In this document: positions 1,843-8,104 of the stretch, in pieces
How the letters are laid out: every line of letters begins with the position of its first letter
Position numbering within the stretch: position 1 is the first letter of the stretch
Assembly (NCBI RefSeq): GCF_003334255.1
Contig: NZ_QOWU01000082.1
Length of the DNA: 11,964 nucleotides
Source: Escherichia coli
GTDB lineage: Bacteria; Pseudomonadota; Gammaproteobacteria; Enterobacterales; Enterobacteriaceae
Strand: one strand, 5' to 3'
Made by a program: the position numbers and the translations under genes
The notes under the pieces: model-generated
What the model was told of the DNA's origin: nothing
Databases searched by the model: none
What the model saw: only the letters and a program-made list of their open reading frames with translations

Positions 1843-2535
1843 CTAGTGATAACCACGCGCGGTCATAAAATCCGTAATCGCTTTTTCTGCATCAACCAAC
1901 ACCTGTTCCAGTGGCTGATTGGCATCGATATCAACCAGTTGTGCACCACCAAAGGTTAACTGTGGCGTTATGGCAATCTTCCTCGCCAGCGATTCCCGTT
2001 TATGGTCGGGTTTACGTGCACAGGCAACTTCAAGGTCAACATTGAGTTTGATGACCAGATCAGGCTTATGGCTCGCCATCCAGTGAAACGCTTTACGTTC
2101 CTGGCTTGCCAGCCATGAGACAAAACGACCACCTTCAACGTTAGGTGGGAACACCGTACCATCGTAAGCGCCAGGAATTTGGTCCTGAGGATAACGGTCG
2201 GTTAGAACAATTAACCCGCGACGACGACAGGCAAGCATATGACGAAAGCGCAGTAAGCGACGGGCGACAAACGCTGTAATTACCAGCGCCGGAACTGGTC
2301 CAGGCAATTTTTTTGCTGTTTTCACCTGATTTCGTTCAATTGTTTTATGTAAGGATTTTCCCATCAACGGTAATTTTGTCACTGCACGACCGACATTTCC
2401 GGCCTGTTTTCCTAAATGAACTCTTTCGGCAGCACCATATTTTTCGACAACGGTAATAAGATGTTCACACACCGTTGACTTGCCTGAACCATCGCTACCA
2501 ATAACGGCAATTAATGGAGGTGTTATTGACTGCAT
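1843..2535 (-). CDS. yghT: Thymidylate-kinase-like P-loop NTPase / putative ATP-binding kinase (YghT-like)
   Basis: 230-aa ORF with ATG start and AAGGA Shine-Dalgarno 8 nt upstream; TAG stop. Walker [17 protein letters not shown] motif, and ARKPDH / TPQLTF motifs shared with the two paralogs downstream. Confidence 0.85.
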
Positions 2536-2708
2536 GAATATATCCTTTAATTTAAATATCCATTAAAAATATTTATTTGGTTAATATGTTTTTATGAAAG
2601 CGTAATTCAGGTCAATGTCACAATTAACCATTGTCACAATAAGGTTGAACGGATATTCTGAGCACGGACCACGTAATATTCAATACATTATTTACTGCCG
2701 GGTTTTTC
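2536..2708. promoter_or_regulatory. AT-rich divergent intergenic region between yghT (minus) and yghS (plus); holds candidate promoters and a direct-repeat operator candidate
   Basis: 173-bp AT-rich spacer between divergently oriented starts. Direct repeat TGTCACAAT at 2616-2624 and 2632-2640; the second copy overlaps a possible -35 TTGTCA (2631-2636) with a -10-like TATTCT (2654-2659). Confidence 0.4.
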
Positions 2709-3422
2709 GTGAATCAACGTAATATGTCAATAATTAATTCCACGCCAGTGCGTGTTATTGCCATTGTAGGATGTGATGGTTCAGGTAAATCGACCCTCAC
2801 GGCAAGCCTGGTAAATGAACTGGCAGCAAGAATGCCAACAGAACACATTTATCTCGGGCAATCGTCCGGGCGAATTGGCGAATGGATTTCACAGCTCCCT
2901 GTTATTGGCGCACCTTTTGGGCGTTATCTGCGAAGTAAAGCGGCACATGTGCACGAAAAGCCCTCAACACCGCCTGGCAATATTACTGCACTGGTTATCT
3001 ATCTGCTTTCCTGCTGGCGGGCGTACAAGTTTCGCAAAATGTTGTGTAAAAGCCAGCAAGGCTTTCTGCTCATCACCGACCGCTACCCGCAGGTTGAAGT
3101 GCCGGGGTTTCGCTTTGATGGCCCGCAATTGGCAAAAACCACGGGCGGTAACGGTTGGATAAAAATGTTAAGGCAGCGCGAGCTGAAGCTGTACCAATGG
3201 ATGGCATCTTATTTGCCCGTATTGTTGATTCGTCTTGGCATTGATGAACAAACCGCGTTTGCGCGTAAACCTGACCACCAACTGGCAGCGTTACAGGAAA
3301 AAATCGCCGTTACGCCGCAACTGACATTCAATGGCGCAAAGATCCTTGAACTGGATGGGCGACACCCCGCCGATGAAATTCTGCAAGCGTCACTACGCGC
3401 AATTCACGCCGCGCTTTCCTGA
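2709..3422 (+). CDS. yghS: Thymidylate-kinase-like P-loop NTPase / putative ATP-binding kinase (YghS-like)
   Basis: 237-aa ORF from the GTG at 2709; an in-frame ATG at 2724 is an alternative start, and neither has a strong Shine-Dalgarno. Walker A IVGCDGSGKST, DRYPQ, ARKPDH, TPQLTF. TGA stop at 3420-3422. Confidence 0.82.
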   Translation: MNQRNMSIINSTPVRVIAIVGCDGSGKSTLTASLVNELAARMPTEHIYLGQSSGRIGEWISQLPVIGAPFGRYLRSKAAHVHEKPSTPPGNITALVIYLLSCWRAYKFRKMLCKSQQGFLLITDRYPQVEVPGFRFDGPQLAKTTGGNGWIKMLRQRELKLYQWMASYLPVLLIRLGIDEQTAFARKPDHQLAALQEKIAVTPQLTFNGAKILELDGRHPADEILQASLRAIHAALS

Positions 3423-3453
3423 TCACCAAAATGGATAGGGGATGATTTAACGA

Positions 3454-4212
3454 ATGGATGCACTACAAACTCAAACTGTTAATAGTACAACCGCGCCGCA
3501 GCCCAACTACATTCCGGGGCTGATTGCGGTGGTCGGGTGTGATGGCACCGGTAAATCCACACTGACCACCGACCTGGTGAAATCGCTGCAACAACACTGG
3601 CAAACCGAGCGGCGCTATCTGGGGCTGCTCTCCGGCGAAGACGGCGACAAAATCAAACGATTGCCGTTGGTTGGCGTCTGGCTGGAACGGCGACTGGCGG
3701 CCAAATCCTCGAAAACCCAAAGCATGAAAACCAAATCTCCGGCGCTATGGGCGGCGGTGATTATGTACTGCTTCTCGCTGCGAAGAATGGCGAATCTACG
3801 CAAGGTTCAGCGACTGGCGCAAAGTGGCGTTCTGGTGGTCAGCGATCGCTTCCCGCAGGCTGAAATTTCGGGCTTTTATTATGATGGACCGGGGATTGGC
3901 GTCGAACGTGCGACCGGGAAAATCAGCATGTTTCTGGCGCAGCGCGAACGGCGTTTATACCAACAAATGGCGCAATATCGCCCGGAATTAATTATTCGCC
4001 TGGGCATTGATATTGAGACTGCCATCTCCCGCAAGCCTGACCATGACTATGCCGAGCTGCAGGACAAAATCGGTGTCATGTCGAAGATTGGCTATAACGG
4101 CACAAAAATTCTTGAGATTGATTCCAGAGCGCCCTACAGCGAAGTGCTGGAACAGGCACAGAAGGCGGTTTCTCTGGTTGCCATCGTTTCTGACCGCCGA
4201 AGTTTAACTTAA
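3454..4212 (+). CDS. yghR: Thymidylate-kinase-like P-loop NTPase / putative ATP-binding kinase (YghR-like)
   Basis: 252-aa ORF with ATG start and AGGGGA about 12 nt upstream. Walker A VVGCDGTGKST, DRFPQ, SRKPDH. Paralogous to the two preceding kinase-like ORFs. Confidence 0.87.
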   Translation: MDALQTQTVNSTTAPQPNYIPGLIAVVGCDGTGKSTLTTDLVKSLQQHWQTERRYLGLLSGEDGDKIKRLPLVGVWLERRLAAKSSKTQSMKTKSPALWAAVIMYCFSLRRMANLRKVQRLAQSGVLVVSDRFPQAEISGFYYDGPGIGVERATGKISMFLAQRERRLYQQMAQYRPELIIRLGIDIETAISRKPDHDYAELQDKIGVMSKIGYNGTKILEIDSRAPYSEVLEQAQKAVSLVAIVSDRRSLT

Positions 4213-4257: not shown

Positions 4258-5607
4258 TTGGCGGGTTTTAACATCAAACATTGGTTTGCAGATGGCGCGT
4301 TTCGCACCATTATTCGCAATAGCGCCTGGTTAGGCTCCAGTAATGTCGTGAGCGCCTTGCTGGGTCTGTTGGCGCTCTCGTGTGCCGGTAAAGGGATGAC
4401 GCCCGCCATGTTTGGCGTACTGGTGATTGTGCAATCGTACGCCAAGTCGATCAGCGATTTTATTAAGTTTCAGACATGGCAACTGGTGGTTCAGTACGGA
4501 ACACCAGCATTAACCAACAATAATCCGCAGCAATTCCGCAATGTCGTCTCATTTTCCTTCTCGCTGGATATCGTCAGCGGCGCGGTGGCGATTGTCGGTG
4601 GCATTGCCTTACTGCCATTCCTTTCCCATTCATTAGGTCTGGATGACCAAAGTTTTTGGCTGGCAGCGCTCTATTGCACGCTCATTCCTTCAATGGCTTC
4701 CTCCACGCCGACCGGCATTCTGCGTGCGGTAGATCGCTTCGATTTAATTGCTGTACAGCAGGCGACGAAACCTTTTCTGCGCGCAGCGGGGAGCGTCGTA
4801 GCCTGGTATTTTGACTTTGGTTTTGCGGGTTTTGTTATTGCCTGGTACGTGTCGAATCTGGTTGGCGGCACCATGTACTGGTGGTTTGCCGCGCGCGAAT
4901 TACGCCGCCGAAATATCCATAACGCCTTCAAATTGAATCTGTTTGAGTCTGCCCGATACATTAAAGGCGCGTGGAGTTTTGTCTGGTCAACCAACATTGC
5001 CCACTCCATCTGGTCGGCGCGTAACTCGTGCAGCACAGTGTTGGTGGGGATCGTGTTAGGACCCGCTGCCGCCGGGTTATTTAAAATCGCCATGACATTC
5101 TTCGACGCCGCCGGAACGCCAGCGGGTTTGCTGGGTAAAAGTTTTTACCCAGAGGTGATGCGTTTAGATCCGCGCACCACCAGACCGTGGTTGTTAGGTG
5201 TGAAGTCCGGTTTACTGGCGGGCGGAATCGGTATTCTGGTGGCGCTCGCGGTGTTGATCGTCGGCAAGCCGCTCATTTCGCTGGTGTTTGGCGTTAAGTA
5301 TCTCGAAGCGTATGACCTGATTCAGGTGATGCTGGGCGCAATTGTGATTTCGATGCTGGGCTTCCCTCAGGAGTCATTGCTATTGATGGCGGGAAAACAG
5401 CGCGCTTTTCTCGTGGCGCAAACCATCGCCTCAATCGGCTACATCGTATTGCTGTTCATGTTCTGTCATCTGTTTGGTGTGCTGGGAGCAGCGTTTGCTT
5501 ACTTCGGTGGGCAATGTCTGGACGTGGCGCTCTCGTTAATTCCAACCTTAAAGGCATTTTTTCAGCGCCATTCCTTGCTTTATAACGCAGCCGGAGAGAA
5601 ATCCTGA
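4258..5607 (+). CDS. yghQ: MOP-superfamily (Wzx/polysaccharide-biosynthesis-type) inner-membrane flippase-like protein (YghQ-like)
   Basis: 449-aa ORF, hydrophobic throughout with many predicted TM helices. The only start that keeps the first TM segment is the TTG at 4258 (AAGG 10 nt upstream; in-frame TAA at 4243-4245; first in-frame ATG not until codon 47). The stop overlaps the next start (TGATG). Confidence 0.8.
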   Translation: MAGFNIKHWFADGAFRTIIRNSAWLGSSNVVSALLGLLALSCAGKGMTPAMFGVLVIVQSYAKSISDFIKFQTWQLVVQYGTPALTNNNPQQFRNVVSFSFSLDIVSGAVAIVGGIALLPFLSHSLGLDDQSFWLAALYCTLIPSMASSTPTGILRAVDRFDLIAVQQATKPFLRAAGSVVAWYFDFGFAGFVIAWYVSNLVGGTMYWWFAARELRRRNIHNAFKLNLFESARYIKGAWSFVWSTNIAHSIWSARNSCSTVLVGIVLGPAAAGLFKIAMTFFDAAGTPAGLLGKSFYPEVMRLDPRTTRPWLLGVKSGLLAGGIGILVALAVLIVGKPLISLVFGVKYLEAYDLIQVMLGAIVISMLGFPQESLLLMAGKQRAFLVAQTIASIGYIVLLFMFCHLFGVLGAAFAYFGGQCLDVALSLIPTLKAFFQRHSLLYNAAGEKS

Positions 5608-6431
5608 TGATGAGAAAATATTTCCCGCTTGAGGCGAGCGAGCGTCTATTTGTTGCGATTGAAGAAGATGATGTCGTTGATGCACAGGTTAGTTTGCCGC
5701 CGACTATTGCACTAAGTTGTACCACCGAAATCATTCATGATAATTACGCGTTATGCCTGCAATTCTGGCTCAATGGCGTTGATCGTCAGGAGTTACTGCG
5801 TTTAGTTCGCAAACAAGCCAAAGGCGATGAGCTGACTGCTGATGAGCGCAAACAATTTAAATACATGCGAGCGCGCTACAAGCACCTGCGTTTTGCGCAA
5901 CGGCTGTATTTAAAGAAGCATCAGGCCGGATTTTTATTCGGCAAAACGACCGTTTTTCTGGGGCGTTTTCAGGACGGCTTTCGTAACGGTAAGAAAAATA
6001 TTGTGTCGTATTACGGCAACCTGTTACGGATTTATTTAAGCTCTCCGGTCTGGTCGTTGGTGAACTATTCATTACGCCATAGCCAGTTAGAAAGCGTAAG
6101 CAGTTTTATTGCCTATCGGCAAAAGCAAATGCATACCCTGAAAGAGATTATTGCCAAACCGCGACTAACCGGTAGGGAATTTCATGATGTGCGAAAAATC
6201 ATCAGCCAGCAGGTTTCTTATTACGACACCTTAAGATCGCTTGATCCTGAAAATAAAGAGGCGTTACAGATATCCCGCTTCCTCGCCGCCATTAATGGCC
6301 TGATGGGAGATAAACACGACGACATGGTGGCGGATGATATGGAAAACCGCCAGTCGTATGATGCACCGGTGGCGCTGGATAGCGATATTCGTCAGCGCTT
6401 AGAGCTGCTGATTTCGCGTTTTCCGCTATAG
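5607..6431 (+). CDS. Hypothetical soluble protein, basic and probably helical; no recognisable catalytic motif
   Basis: 274-aa ORF starting with tandem ATG ATG, GGAGAG Shine-Dalgarno 8 nt upstream, and a 1-nt overlap with the yghQ stop. No signal peptide or TM segment seen. Confidence 0.75.
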   Translation: MMRKYFPLEASERLFVAIEEDDVVDAQVSLPPTIALSCTTEIIHDNYALCLQFWLNGVDRQELLRLVRKQAKGDELTADERKQFKYMRARYKHLRFAQRLYLKKHQAGFLFGKTTVFLGRFQDGFRNGKKNIVSYYGNLLRIYLSSPVWSLVNYSLRHSQLESVSSFIAYRQKQMHTLKEIIAKPRLTGREFHDVRKIISQQVSYYDTLRSLDPENKEALQISRFLAAINGLMGDKHDDMVADDMENRQSYDAPVALDSDIRQRLELLISRFPL

Positions 6432-6439
6432 CCGGAGCA

Positions 6440-7003
6440 ATGATGTCATCTCGTTTGATTATTGCGTTGATTATCATGCTCTTAGCCCCGGGTGTGCAGG
6501 CACACAATTTCGTCACTGGCAAAACGGTTACCCCTGTTTATATCCAGGAAGGCGGCGAGCTGCTTCTGAATAGCGACGACGAAATTCACTACCAAAAGTG
6601 GAACAGCACACAATTAGCGGGAAAAGTCCGCATTATTCAGTATATCGCCGGGCGTAAGTCGGCGAAGAAAAAGAACTCACTGTTAATTAAAGCGGTTGAA
6701 GCGGCAAACTTTCCGCAGGATCGTTTTCAGCCCACCACCATTGTGAACACCGATGATGCCATCTTTGGTACTGGCTATTTTGTTGTTGGCAAAATCGAAA
6801 AAAATAAACGCCGCTATCCGTGGGCGCAATTCGTTATTGACGGCAATGGACAGGGACGCGTTGCCTGGCGCTTGCCGGAGCAGAGTTCAACCATTCTGGT
6901 GCTGAATAAAGCCGGGCAAATTCAGTGGGCAAAGGACGGCAGCCTGACGCCGGAAGAGGTAGATCATGTCATTGCGTTGGCGCAGAAACTGATCAATGAA
7001 TAA
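6440..7003 (+). CDS. Secreted/periplasmic protein of unknown function with a Sec signal peptide
   Basis: 187-aa ORF. N-terminus MMSSRLIIALIIMLLAPGVQA|HN has an n-region, hydrophobic core and an AxA-type cleavage site. GGAG lies 2 nt before the first ATG (6440) and 5 nt before the second (6443), so the true start may be 6443. Confidence 0.8.
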   Translation: MMSSRLIIALIIMLLAPGVQAHNFVTGKTVTPVYIQEGGELLLNSDDEIHYQKWNSTQLAGKVRIIQYIAGRKSAKKKNSLLIKAVEAANFPQDRFQPTTIVNTDDAIFGTGYFVVGKIEKNKRRYPWAQFVIDGNGQGRVAWRLPEQSSTILVLNKAGQIQWAKDGSLTPEEVDHVIALAQKLINE

Positions 7004-7033
7004 AAAACTCAAAGGATTGAGGGCGTTAGTGAG

Positions 7034-8104
7034 ATGAAGCTGGTTGAACACTACATCATGCGTGGTACGCGCCGTCTGGTGCTGATTATCGTCGGTTTTC
7101 TGATCTTTATTTTCGCCAGCTACTCCGCACAGCGTTATCTGACCGAAGCGGCAAATGGGACATTAGCTCTTGATGTTGTGCTGGATATCGTTTTCTACAA
7201 AGTACTGATTGCACTGGAGATGTTGTTACCTGTTGGTCTGTATGTGTCAGTTGGCGTGACGCTAGGGCAGATGTATACCGACTCGGAAATTACCGCTATC
7301 TCTGCGGCGGGGGGCAGTCCGGGACGCTTGTACAAAGCCGTTCTTTATCTGGCGATACCGCTAAGTATTTTTGTCACCCTTCTGTCGATGTATGGTCGTC
7401 CGTGGGCTTATGCGCAGATTTATCAACTGGAGCAGCAGTCGCAGTCGGAGCTGGATGTTCGCCAGTTGCGGGCAAAGAAATTTAACACTAACGATAACGG
7501 ACGAATGATCCTTTCGCAGACGGTTGATCAGGATAATAATCGCCTGACTGACGCGCTGATTTATACTTCTACTGCCAATCGAACCCGCATTTTCCGCGCC
7601 CGTTCGGTTGATGTGGTTGACCCATCACCCGAGAAACCGACCGTTATGTTGCACAACGGCACTGCCTATCTTATCGATCATCAGGGGCGTGATGACAACG
7701 AACAGATCTACCGTAATCTGCAATTACATCTGAATCCGCTGGATCAAAGCCCTAACGTCAAACGCAAAGCGAAATCGGTCACGGAGCTGGCGCGCTCCGT
7801 CTTTCCAGCCGATCATGCCGAACTGCAATGGCGGCAAAGCCGTGGCCTGACCGCATTGTTGATGGCGCTGCTGGCCATTTCATTAAGTCGGGTAAAACCG
7901 CGGCAAGGGCGATTTTCAACGTTATTGCCACTGACGTTGCTGTTTATTGCCATTTTTTATGGCGGTGACGTCTGCCGTACGCTGGTGGCTAACGGCGCGA
8001 TTCCCCTCATTCCTGGTTTGTGGTTAGTACCCGGACTCATGCTAATGGGCCTGCTGATGCTGGTCGCACGCGACTTCTCTTTGCTGCAGAAATTTTCCCG
8101 ATGA
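7034..8104 (+). CDS. LptF/LptG-family (YjgP/YjgQ) permease, paralog 1
   Basis: 356-aa ORF. N-terminus LVEHYIMRG followed by a TM helix, family-typical SEITAISAAGGSP motif after the third hydrophobic segment, a hydrophilic middle domain and C-terminal TM helices. This matches LptF/LptG architecture as I recall it. Confidence 0.85.
   Translation: MKLVEHYIMRGTRRLVLIIVGFLIFIFASYSAQRYLTEAANGTLALDVVLDIVFYKVLIALEMLLPVGLYVSVGVTLGQMYTDSEITAISAAGGSPGRLYKAVLYLAIPLSIFVTLLSMYGRPWAYAQIYQLEQQSQSELDVRQLRAKKFNTNDNGRMILSQTVDQDNNRLTDALIYTSTANRTRIFRARSVDVVDPSPEKPTVMLHNGTAYLIDHQGRDDNEQIYRNLQLHLNPLDQSPNVKRKAKSVTELARSVFPADHAELQWRQSRGLTALLMALLAISLSRVKPRQGRFSTLLPLTLLFIAIFYGGDVCRTLVANGAIPLIPGLWLVPGLMLMGLLMLVARDFSLLQKFSR

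Follow-up and report, generated by a model that had tools for sequence, protein, structure and literature searches.

A sphingolipid-island paralog of YtfJ in Escherichia coli, a probable non-redox accessory factor of the periplasm

Sphingolipid export in Caulobacter requires the permeases LptF2 and LptG2, which assemble into a complex that also includes housekeeping LptB (bioRxiv 10.64898/2026.04.12.717747). The same preprint describes sphingolipid loci as carrying no further Lpt duplicates, explicitly leaves open the periplasmic and outer-membrane components of sphingolipid transport, and favors the reuse of housekeeping LptC, LptA, LptD, and LptE. It also depicts the version of the Escherichia coli sphingolipid island found in strain UTI89. 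On the biosynthetic side, Spt, AcpR, and AasR of E. coli BL21(DE3) have been found to be enzymatically active, producing 3-oxo-sphinganine (PMC9386255). Neither the Caulobacter-type nor the Sphingomonas-type loci, which are functional, have any described YtfJ-like gene. With respect to the YtfJ family itself, the literature retrieved with the terms YtfJ, PF09695, TIGR01626, and HI0045 consists of proteome and expression lists together with a negative genetic-interaction screen; it reports no function, ligand, or partner for any family member, and it includes no paper concerning sphingolipids or Lpt paralogs.

The DNA analyzed here (the window) is an 11,964-nucleotide stretch of E. coli contig NZ_QOWU01000082.1, and it is the known sphingolipid island of this species, with genes from pitB to aasR (Table 1). 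The corresponding RefSeq neighborhood runs from hyb-yghU-gss-pitB through the divergent yghT to yghS, yghR, yghQ, a gene for a 274-aa protein, the gene of interest (here named ytfJ2), and the lptF/lptG paralogs; these are followed by convergent genes for Spt, an acyl carrier protein, an epimerase/reductase, and a fatty-acyl-AMP ligase, and then by yghO and glcC. The 3.6 kb surrounding ytfJ2 has a match in 4176 of 5426 complete E. coli genomes, and ytfJ2 alone has a match in 4147, which places the island in roughly three quarters of them. In K-12 MG1655, an IS5 element lies between a truncated yghQ (intact in the window) and yghO, and everything from the 274-aa gene through aasR is absent, the island center having been lost through an IS5 deletion.

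The permease pair that follows ytfJ2 belongs to the sphingolipid island and not to LPS export. Both proteins score above the curated NCBIfam cut-offs for LptF and LptG, at only 29% and 28% identity to K-12 LptF and LptG, respectively, and they correspond to the Caulobacter LptF2 and LptG2 proteins of bioRxiv 10.64898/2026.04.12.717747. The placement of ytfJ2 directly before such a pair, as given in the original prediction, is borne out (Table 1), and the arrangement is conserved well beyond E. coli, as described below. The start of lptG2 overlaps the stop codon of lptF2 by 4 nt. Upstream, ytfJ2 is separated from the preceding ORF by 8 nt (11 nt if counted from the ATG at 6443) and from lptF2 by 30 nt, all on the same strand. 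No terminator-like site was detected between 6431 and 7034, and the total number of such sites was not above shuffled expectation. Cotranscription of ytfJ2 with its neighbors is thus likely judging from this layout, and the putative operon would read yghS-yghR-yghQ (flippase)-CHAD-like gene-ytfJ2-lptF2-lptG2. A scan of the window against Rfam found no regulatory RNAs.

Three P-loop kinase-like proteins are encoded in the island, one of which, YghT, is present in every complete island locus. We considered whether YghR, YghS, and YghT might be equivalents of the Caulobacter ceramide kinase CpgB and rejected this assignment, as the island proteins are P-loop dTMP-kinase-like whereas CpgB is described by a GGDG motif. 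This motif is common to sphingosine and ceramide kinases, and the CpgB paper mentions no P-loop or Walker motif.

Table 1. Positions of genes and sequence features in the 11,964-nt window
Feature	Coordinates	Strand	Basis or remark
yghT, third P-loop kinase-like paralog, divergent	1843..2535	-	ORF list, RefSeq
Promoter-like site ahead of yghS	2631..2659		
yghS and yghR, P-loop dTMP-kinase-like pair, first genes of the putative operon	2709..4212	+	Sub-threshold dTMP-kinase matches, RefSeq names
yghQ, MOP/Wzx-type flippase	4258..5607	+	Weak NCBIfam MOP flippase match; ortholog matches Pfam Polysacc_synt
274-aa protein, cytoplasmic, all-helical, CHAD-like predicted fold	5607..6431	+	
Shine-Dalgarno-like GGAG	6434..6437	+	Direct reading of the sequence
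ytfJ2, YtfJ-family periplasmic protein	6440..7003 (stop codon included)	+	ORF list, HMMs, RefSeq
Predicted Sec signal peptide, residues 1-21, cut at VQA|HN	6440..6502	+	Hydropathy, ortholog conservation, model confidence
A70-G71-R72-K73-S74-A75, motif A-G-R-x-S-A	6647..6664	+	Strand-3/helix-1 junction, placed from model secondary structure
T99-T100-I-V-N103-T-D105-D106-A, most conserved stretch of the family	6734..6760	+	Alignments A1 and A2
A7 homopolymer tract within ytfJ2	6798..6804	+	Site of the -1 frameshift in an allele of other E. coli
lptF2, LptF paralog of the sphingolipid island	7034..8104	+	TIGR04407, 318 bits
lptG2, LptG paralog	8101..9180	+	TIGR04408, 308 bits; RefSeq coordinates
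Hairpin, GC-rich 16-bp stem, between convergent lptG2 and spt	9178..9212		Likely terminator
Ceramide-precursor synthesis genes spt-acpR-cerR-aasR	9215..11964	-	NF047599, RefSeq
spt, serine palmitoyltransferase	9215..10387	-	NF047599, 599 bits
acpR, acyl carrier protein	10387..10635	-	
cerR/epi, NAD-dependent epimerase/reductase	10667..11581	-	
aasR 3' end, fatty-acyl-AMP ligase	from 11578, cut at window end	-	

The ytfJ2 ORF was originally predicted as a secreted protein of 187 aa, and both parts of that description hold up well. The reading frame is present as described, and the identical gene is listed in RefSeq annotations of E. coli chromosomes as a "YtfJ family protein" (WP_001298770.1). 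Family HMM matches with E-values of 5e-63 and 2e-59, as well as dN/dS ratios of 0.09–0.20 against orthologs, mark it as a genuine gene and not a chance ORF, and these ratios show that it is under purifying selection. In terms of the translation start, the RefSeq record uses the second ATG (6443), which would shorten the product to 186 aa. This start is the likely one, because the GGAG element lies 5 nt upstream of the ATG at 6443 and only 2 nt upstream of that at 6440.

The N-terminus of YtfJ2, evaluated by inspection and Kyte-Doolittle hydropathy, matches the usual pattern of a Sec signal that is cleaved, here presumably at the VQA|HN junction proposed originally. Specifically, a short and basic n-region (MMSSR) precedes a hydrophobic core of LIIALIIMLLAPG and a c-region (V-Q-A) with small residues at positions -3 and -1, and the hydropathy maximum of the entire protein (3.5 with an 11-residue window) falls on residues 6–16. 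In the 26 orthologs with an intact N-terminus, the A-x-A|H-N-(F/L) junction is kept while the hydrophobic core varies freely, and a hydrophobic leader begins nearly all representatives of the YtfJ family. The first 20 residues form a detached helix of lower confidence in the AlphaFold2 model described below. The protein contains no cysteine and thus no lipobox, indicating that it is not a lipoprotein. Inspection of the ORF translations identified YtfJ2 as the sole island product in the window with a cleavable signal peptide.

YtfJ2 belongs to the YtfJ family by every measure applied. It scores 212.1 bits against TIGR01626 (curated cut-off 151.1), with residues 2–185 aligned end to end with positions 1–183 of the 184-position profile, and it matches positions 3–159 of the 160 in PF09695 with an E-value of 2e-59. 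Identity to K-12 YtfJ is 54%. The signal peptide is followed by a mature domain of ~165 aa that carries the family motifs A-G-R-x-S-A and T-T-I-V-N-x-D-D; residues A70, G71, and R72 are invariant in a 21-sequence alignment (A2), and the A-G-R-x-S-A motif is kept in both enterobacterial clades discussed below. A search of 1.84 billion representatives yields 390 clusters at E ≤ 1e-3, which makes the family a small one.

From an alignment of 104 family sequences (A1), AlphaFold2 gave a confident model, with a pLDDT of 94.8 and a pTM of 0.87. Its topology, an N-terminal beta-hairpin followed by b3-a1-b4-a2-b5-a3-b6-b7-a4, is a thioredoxin fold with an N-terminal hairpin and a central insertion, and in this predicted structure the order of elements is that of extracytoplasmic thioredoxin-fold oxidoreductases. 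In two structural searches, the best neighbors among the top 50–60 listed for each were all of the TlpA/ResA/CcmG/peroxiredoxin type, and beta-jellyroll proteins were absent from both lists. Neither the protein on its own nor the family profile retrieved a meaningful homolog from the PDB by sequence; the only hit was a marginal alignment to the C-terminal part of ResA (E 0.04). No match to OstA- or LptC-type HMMs was seen for YtfJ2 in Pfam or NCBIfam. The original prediction had suggested an analogy with LptA and LptC, alongside a more guarded mention of a thioredoxin-like or YtfJ-like protein, and had proposed a comparison with both types of fold. The second suggestion agrees with both family profiles, the model, and its structural neighbors; the first is contradicted by the missing OstA/LptC profile match and by a predicted alpha/beta thioredoxin fold with no jellyroll relative.

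The fold naturally raises the possibility that YtfJ2 is a periplasmic thiol-disulfide oxidoreductase or peroxiredoxin, for example one that supplies reductant to a periplasmic ceramide reductase. Enzymes of the TlpA, ResA, and CcmG type are indeed the best structural matches, and Caulobacter CerR has been reported to be periplasmic, with a reductant source that is unexplained as far as the citation of that work in PMC11324152 goes. The sequence of YtfJ2 is nonetheless incompatible with either activity. The entire protein contains zero cysteines, and no conserved Cys column exists across the 104 family members. The strand-3/helix-1 junction, which holds the CxxC site in the oxidoreductases, is occupied by G71-R72-K73-S74-A75, and the segment of ResA that bears the cis-proline aligns with S149-S150, albeit within the marginal alignment noted above. 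Neither the catalytic CxxC and cis-proline loop of TlpA, ResA, and CcmG nor the peroxidatic cysteine in the PxxxT/SxxC context of AhpC/TSA, BCP, and Tpx proteins is found. As a protein without cysteine, YtfJ2 is excluded from thiol-disulfide or peroxidase chemistry, and on these sequence grounds we rejected both assignments; a redox role is effectively refuted.

We turn to the relationship between YtfJ2 and the housekeeping family member. A genome scan with one genome per species, using alignment A2 and the T99–A107 stretch as a peptide pattern, yielded 80 enterobacterial loci, each of which was searched by tblastn for the other proteins of the window. All 27 loci with at least 60% identity to YtfJ2 lie within a sphingolipid island, whereas none of the 53 canonical ytfJ loci (≤59% identity) has island genes within 10 kb. 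The island loci contain the 274-aa gene and lptF2/lptG2, as well as the P-loop genes, the flippase, and spt where the fetched stretch was long enough, and they come from Escherichia, Pseudocitrobacter, Citrobacter amalonaticus, Klebsiella indica, Mangrovibacter, Serratia, Pantoea, Pluralibacter, Erwinia, Sodalis, and others. Five genomes carry both ytfJ and ytfJ2. In a neighbor-joining tree, the island copies and the canonical copies form sister clades, and the E. coli protein groups with the former in addition to being encoded next to the CHAD-like gene and lptF2/lptG2. The gene is, in other words, a second and island-specific paralog and not the housekeeping ytfJ.

The position of ytfJ2 within the island is stable: at least 14 enterobacterial genera share it, and it survives rearrangements of the island. 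Of the 27 island loci, 24 have ytfJ2 immediately 5' of lptF2, and 26 have the CHAD-like gene directly 5' of ytfJ2 on the same strand (in Sodalis the CHAD-like gene is downstream and convergent). The three rearranged loci (L019, L025, and L032) have lptF2G2 a few kilobases away with ytfJ2 still in the island, beside the flippase and 274-aa genes in two cases and after spt in Sodalis. Individual look-ups in Citrobacter farmeri, Serratia liquefaciens, Erwinia billingiae, and a Pantoea sp. revealed the same organization, with the biosynthetic operon on either side of the transport operon and flanking genes that are unrelated between genera. Retrieval in the reverse direction, through LptF2, returned a PF09695 gene directly upstream in three of three cases (Hafnia alvei, Shimwellia blattae, and a Raoultella sp.). 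Among more divergent members, P0134 (42% identical) is in an island and overlaps its neighbors by 4 and 14 nt, and P0128 (45% identical) is in the canonical context tamAB-msrA-paeA-ytfK-ytfJ-cysQ-cpdB. Distant family members P0127, P0135, and P0161 are standalone genes with unrelated neighbors and no lipid or Lpt context. We also encountered in-frame ytfJ2-lptF2 "fusions" of 553 aa in singleton clusters; these were rejected as Rosetta-stone evidence, being topologically implausible and probably the product of a stop-codon mutation or an assembly error.

Such conservation bears directly on whether ytfJ2 is simply a spare copy of ytfJ that entered the island early in the Enterobacterales and has hitch-hiked there since, retaining a general envelope or stress function with no role in sphingolipid handling. 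The two clades are sisters that have 65 conserved positions in common and are told apart by only six, namely (YtfJ2/YtfJ) F96/Y, P98/T, K118/S, K121/S, A129/S, and T151/A. Moreover, disrupted alleles of ytfJ2, whether frameshifted, truncated, or interrupted by IS elements, circulate in E. coli; one allele with a -1 frameshift at the A7 tract (P0096), which reads GKIEK-INAAIRG..., is present on 120 contigs. K-12, for its part, lacks the island center altogether, and ytfJ2 is dispensable in culture. Set against a passenger role are the retention of the same operon slot across these genera, through several rearrangements and down to 42% identity, a dN/dS of about 0.1, start and stop codons that overlap those of neighboring genes in some genomes, and the persistence of both copies in others. 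On the strength of synteny and selection, a neutral passenger is disfavored, and we consider it quite improbable.

The same gene order can be taken to suggest that YtfJ2 is a functional analog of LptC or LptA, carrying acyl chains from LptF2G2 toward the outer membrane. In this regard, the adjacency to lptF2 seen in 24 of 27 loci recurs at the P0134 locus and in each of the three loci retrieved via LptF2, no LptC2 is encoded in the enterobacterial island while Caulobacter has one, and the periplasmic step of sphingolipid transport has no assigned protein (bioRxiv 10.64898/2026.04.12.717747). The predicted structure, however, is a compact thioredoxin alpha/beta domain as opposed to the OstA-type beta-jellyroll of the Lpt bridge, without any HMM or structural match to LptA or LptC, and the conserved surface of YtfJ2 appears from its sequence to be polar rather than hydrophobic. 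In the three rearranged loci, it is lptF2G2 that has moved off, leaving ytfJ2 with the flippase and CHAD-like genes or with spt, and the Caulobacter authors prefer reuse of the housekeeping LptC/A/D/E proteins (bioRxiv 10.64898/2026.04.12.717747). Given the modeled fold and the nature of the surface, a true lipid-carrier role is disfavored, with a probability that we would put as low as that of the passenger.

We instead lean, by somewhat better than an even chance, toward YtfJ2 being a Sec-exported, soluble periplasmic YtfJ protein that serves the lipid pathway of the island as a non-redox binding or accessory factor and not as a bridge of the LptA/LptC type. The protein would share a pathway with the products of its neighboring genes and act in the periplasm, at a step that probably falls after YghQ has flipped the lipid and at or before its extraction by LptF2G2, which in Caulobacter works with housekeeping LptB. 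Binding may involve a site composed of the conserved residues R72, S74, K76, K78, N103, D105, D106, D134, R140, W54, and W143. Its target would be either the island lipid, through a head group that is polar and probably anionic or phosphorylated, or a periplasmic domain of the transporter, and YtfJ2 would not itself be expected to form a beta-jellyroll bridge.

Several features of the conserved positions speak to this proposal. The conserved polar positions are R72, S74, K76, K78, N79, N103, D105, D106, D134, R140, S149, S150, K165, and D166, and the conserved aromatic ones are W54, W128, W143, and W163. Since conserved positions are mostly polar or aromatic, recognition of a head group or of a protein partner is favored over sequestration of acyl chains. 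In addition, the presence of three P-loop kinase-like proteins and a CHAD-like neighbor, the latter with a polyphosphate-binding fold, hints at a phosphorylated product. Two of the six discriminating positions, K118 and K121, are added lysines on helix 112–125 of YtfJ2. Nearly all conserved positions are nevertheless common to the two clades, and for this reason YtfJ and YtfJ2 most likely have a single biochemical activity, differing only in partner or substrate, as far as can be judged from their sequences. The site is equally conserved in housekeeping YtfJ where the genome has no island, as in K-12, and this common activity is therefore not specific to sphingolipids but more general; YtfJ2 would be a specialized version of it. 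By the same token, as the Caulobacter- and Sphingomonas-type loci manage without a YtfJ-like gene, YtfJ2 is not a general requirement for LptF2G2 function. Further points against the proposal are the absence of lipid or Lpt genes around the distant family members and the dispensability of ytfJ2 in culture.

The main rival to a binding function is a catalytic, non-thiol role at the very same site, with YtfJ2 and YtfJ acting as periplasmic hydrolases or transferases that remodel the polar head group of the flipped lipid, for instance by trimming or transferring phosphate groups. Thioredoxin-fold proteins with non-redox catalytic sites do exist, and in YtfJ2 a cluster of Arg, Ser, Asp, and Asn residues would occupy the former CxxC site. 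The mainly polar and charged character of the conserved positions is reminiscent of an active site, and the kinase-like and CHAD-like proteins of the island suggest phosphorylated intermediates on which such an enzyme could act. We nonetheless regard this role as unlikely, if with an appreciable chance of being correct, in that neither sequence nor fold matches a characterized hydrolase or transferase family, no recognizable catalytic motif was found, and the same site is present in the housekeeping YtfJ of island-less genomes.

Returning to YtfJ2 as a binding or accessory factor, a bolder version of this proposal would make it the missing periplasmic component of enterobacterial sphingolipid export. 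The protein would then bind a (poly)phosphorylated ceramide produced by the island, via its anionic head group, and couple YghQ to LptB–LptF2G2, replacing LptC2. We rate this version as distinctly unlikely; if it were true, the orphan YtfJ family would gain a role in envelope lipid or glycolipid trafficking. If, on the other hand, ytfJ2 were irrelevant to lipid handling, all that would remain is a routine family annotation.

Both the gene with its family label and the island were already on record in databases and publications. The apparent novelty lies in recognizing the island copy as a separate YtfJ clade that forms an invariable component, kept by selection, of the operon for enterobacterial sphingolipid transport. 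As the one conserved and dedicated protein of the enterobacterial island that is predicted to be periplasmic, YtfJ2 provides a concrete and testable candidate for the periplasmic leg of sphingolipid export. It also offers a first functional handle on a family that has been without an assigned function since the first genome annotations, and the mere six clade-defining positions between YtfJ and YtfJ2 are a natural basis for a specificity swap.

Among known systems, the closest relative is the family of K-12 YtfJ (b4216) and HI0045. K-12 YtfJ has the same length, a signal peptide, the A|H-N/Q-F mature N-terminus, and the 65 conserved positions, including A-G-R-x-S-A and T-T-I-V-N-T-D-D. It differs in belonging to a separate sister clade, in having Ser where YtfJ2 has K118 and K121, and in its genomic context of cpdB-cysQ-ytfI-ytfJ-ytfK-paeA-msrA-tamAB in place of the sphingolipid island. 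Relative to the TlpA/ResA/CcmG (DsbE)/Etrx-type oxidoreductases, YtfJ2 shows just 7–19% identity, without the CxxC or any Cys and with Ser-Ser at the cis-Pro loop. The LptA/LptC bridge for LPS is likewise periplasmic, and its genes lie near a permease pair of the LptF/LptG type, but it has no sequence or fold similarity to YtfJ2, which matches neither the OstA HMM nor the jellyroll. The Caulobacter protein LptC2 (CC_1168/CCNA_01226) resembles YtfJ2 as an envelope protein of a sphingolipid locus, encoded alongside LptF2/LptG2 and a candidate accessory factor for export. LptC2 is a membrane-anchored, beta-jellyroll LptC homolog found only in Caulobacter and not homologous to YtfJ2, whereas YtfJ2 is soluble, has a predicted thioredoxin fold, and was found here in enterobacterial-type contigs only. 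By analogy of position, LptC2 may nonetheless be viewed as the nearest functional counterpart of YtfJ2.

Within Escherichia, the sphingolipid island diverges most in the CHAD-like gene and in ytfJ2, the adjacent gene for a predicted periplasmic protein of the YtfJ family. Compared with a second E. coli strain (locus L009), these two genes retain 90-91% amino acid identity, whereas the other genes of the yghS-lptG2 operon retain 95-98%. Across E. coli, ytfJ2 nucleotide identity falls into three bands: at least 99% in 2077 genomes, 95-99% in 1529 and 90-95% in 540. At the sequence level, this pattern of divergence suggests either separate allele families or recombination.

Some alleles of ytfJ2 are also broken. 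The 153-residue database protein P0096 represents a -1 frameshift at the A7 tract within the gene and was found on 120 contigs, one of which is a 5.44-Mb chromosome; P0020 and P0013 are further truncated or partial alleles. Judging from these frameshifted and shortened alleles, some lineages of E. coli carry ytfJ2 as a pseudogene. Additional evidence for decay of the island in some lineages comes from IS1 or ISApl1 insertions within the 5600..9200 segment in some strains (MRE162 sublines and SC516). In K-12 MG1655 (locus L093, 3124000-3137500, compared with window positions 4258..11964), an IS5 element (insH9) is flanked by yghO and a truncated yghQ, and the CHAD-like gene, ytfJ2, lptF2, lptG2, spt, acpR, cerR and aasR are absent, which explains the 'orphan' yghQ/R/S/T/O genes of K-12.

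Features of the window discussed here
Feature	Window position	Description
YghT, YghS, YghR	1843..4212	Three paralogous P-loop proteins
CHAD-like gene and ytfJ2	5607..7003	Most divergent part of the island within Escherichia
ytfJ2 and lptF2	6440..8104	Shared reading frame, 30 nt apart
A7 homopolymer tract	6798..6804	Within ytfJ2
Hairpin	9178..9212	GC-rich, 16-bp stem, exactly between the stop codons of convergent lptG2 and spt

With respect to gene organization, a handful of singleton entries in the database, 544-553 residues long, combine the YtfJ family domain (PF09695) with PF03739 and resemble fusions of ytfJ2 and lptF2 by stop-codon read-through; these are probably mutations or assembly errors. 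The hairpin downstream of lptG2 is likely a bidirectional terminator. Typical enterobacterial ytfJ2 or ytfJ loci were also observed on contigs of two public assemblies with non-enterobacterial labels, 'Martelella alba' BGMRC 2031 and 'Chryseobacterium sp. 18061' (L030 and L058), both of which are probably contaminated or mislabelled.

In terms of head-group chemistry, YghT, YghS and YghR show only sub-threshold similarity to dTMP kinase, despite which two of the three carry the PGAP label 'dTMP kinase'. CpgB, the Caulobacter ceramide kinase, is described by the GGDG motif common to sphingosine and ceramide kinases rather than by a P-loop, and so, compared by description, the three island proteins differ from it in kind. 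This distinction argues that the enterobacterial island probably has a head-group chemistry different from that of Caulobacter.
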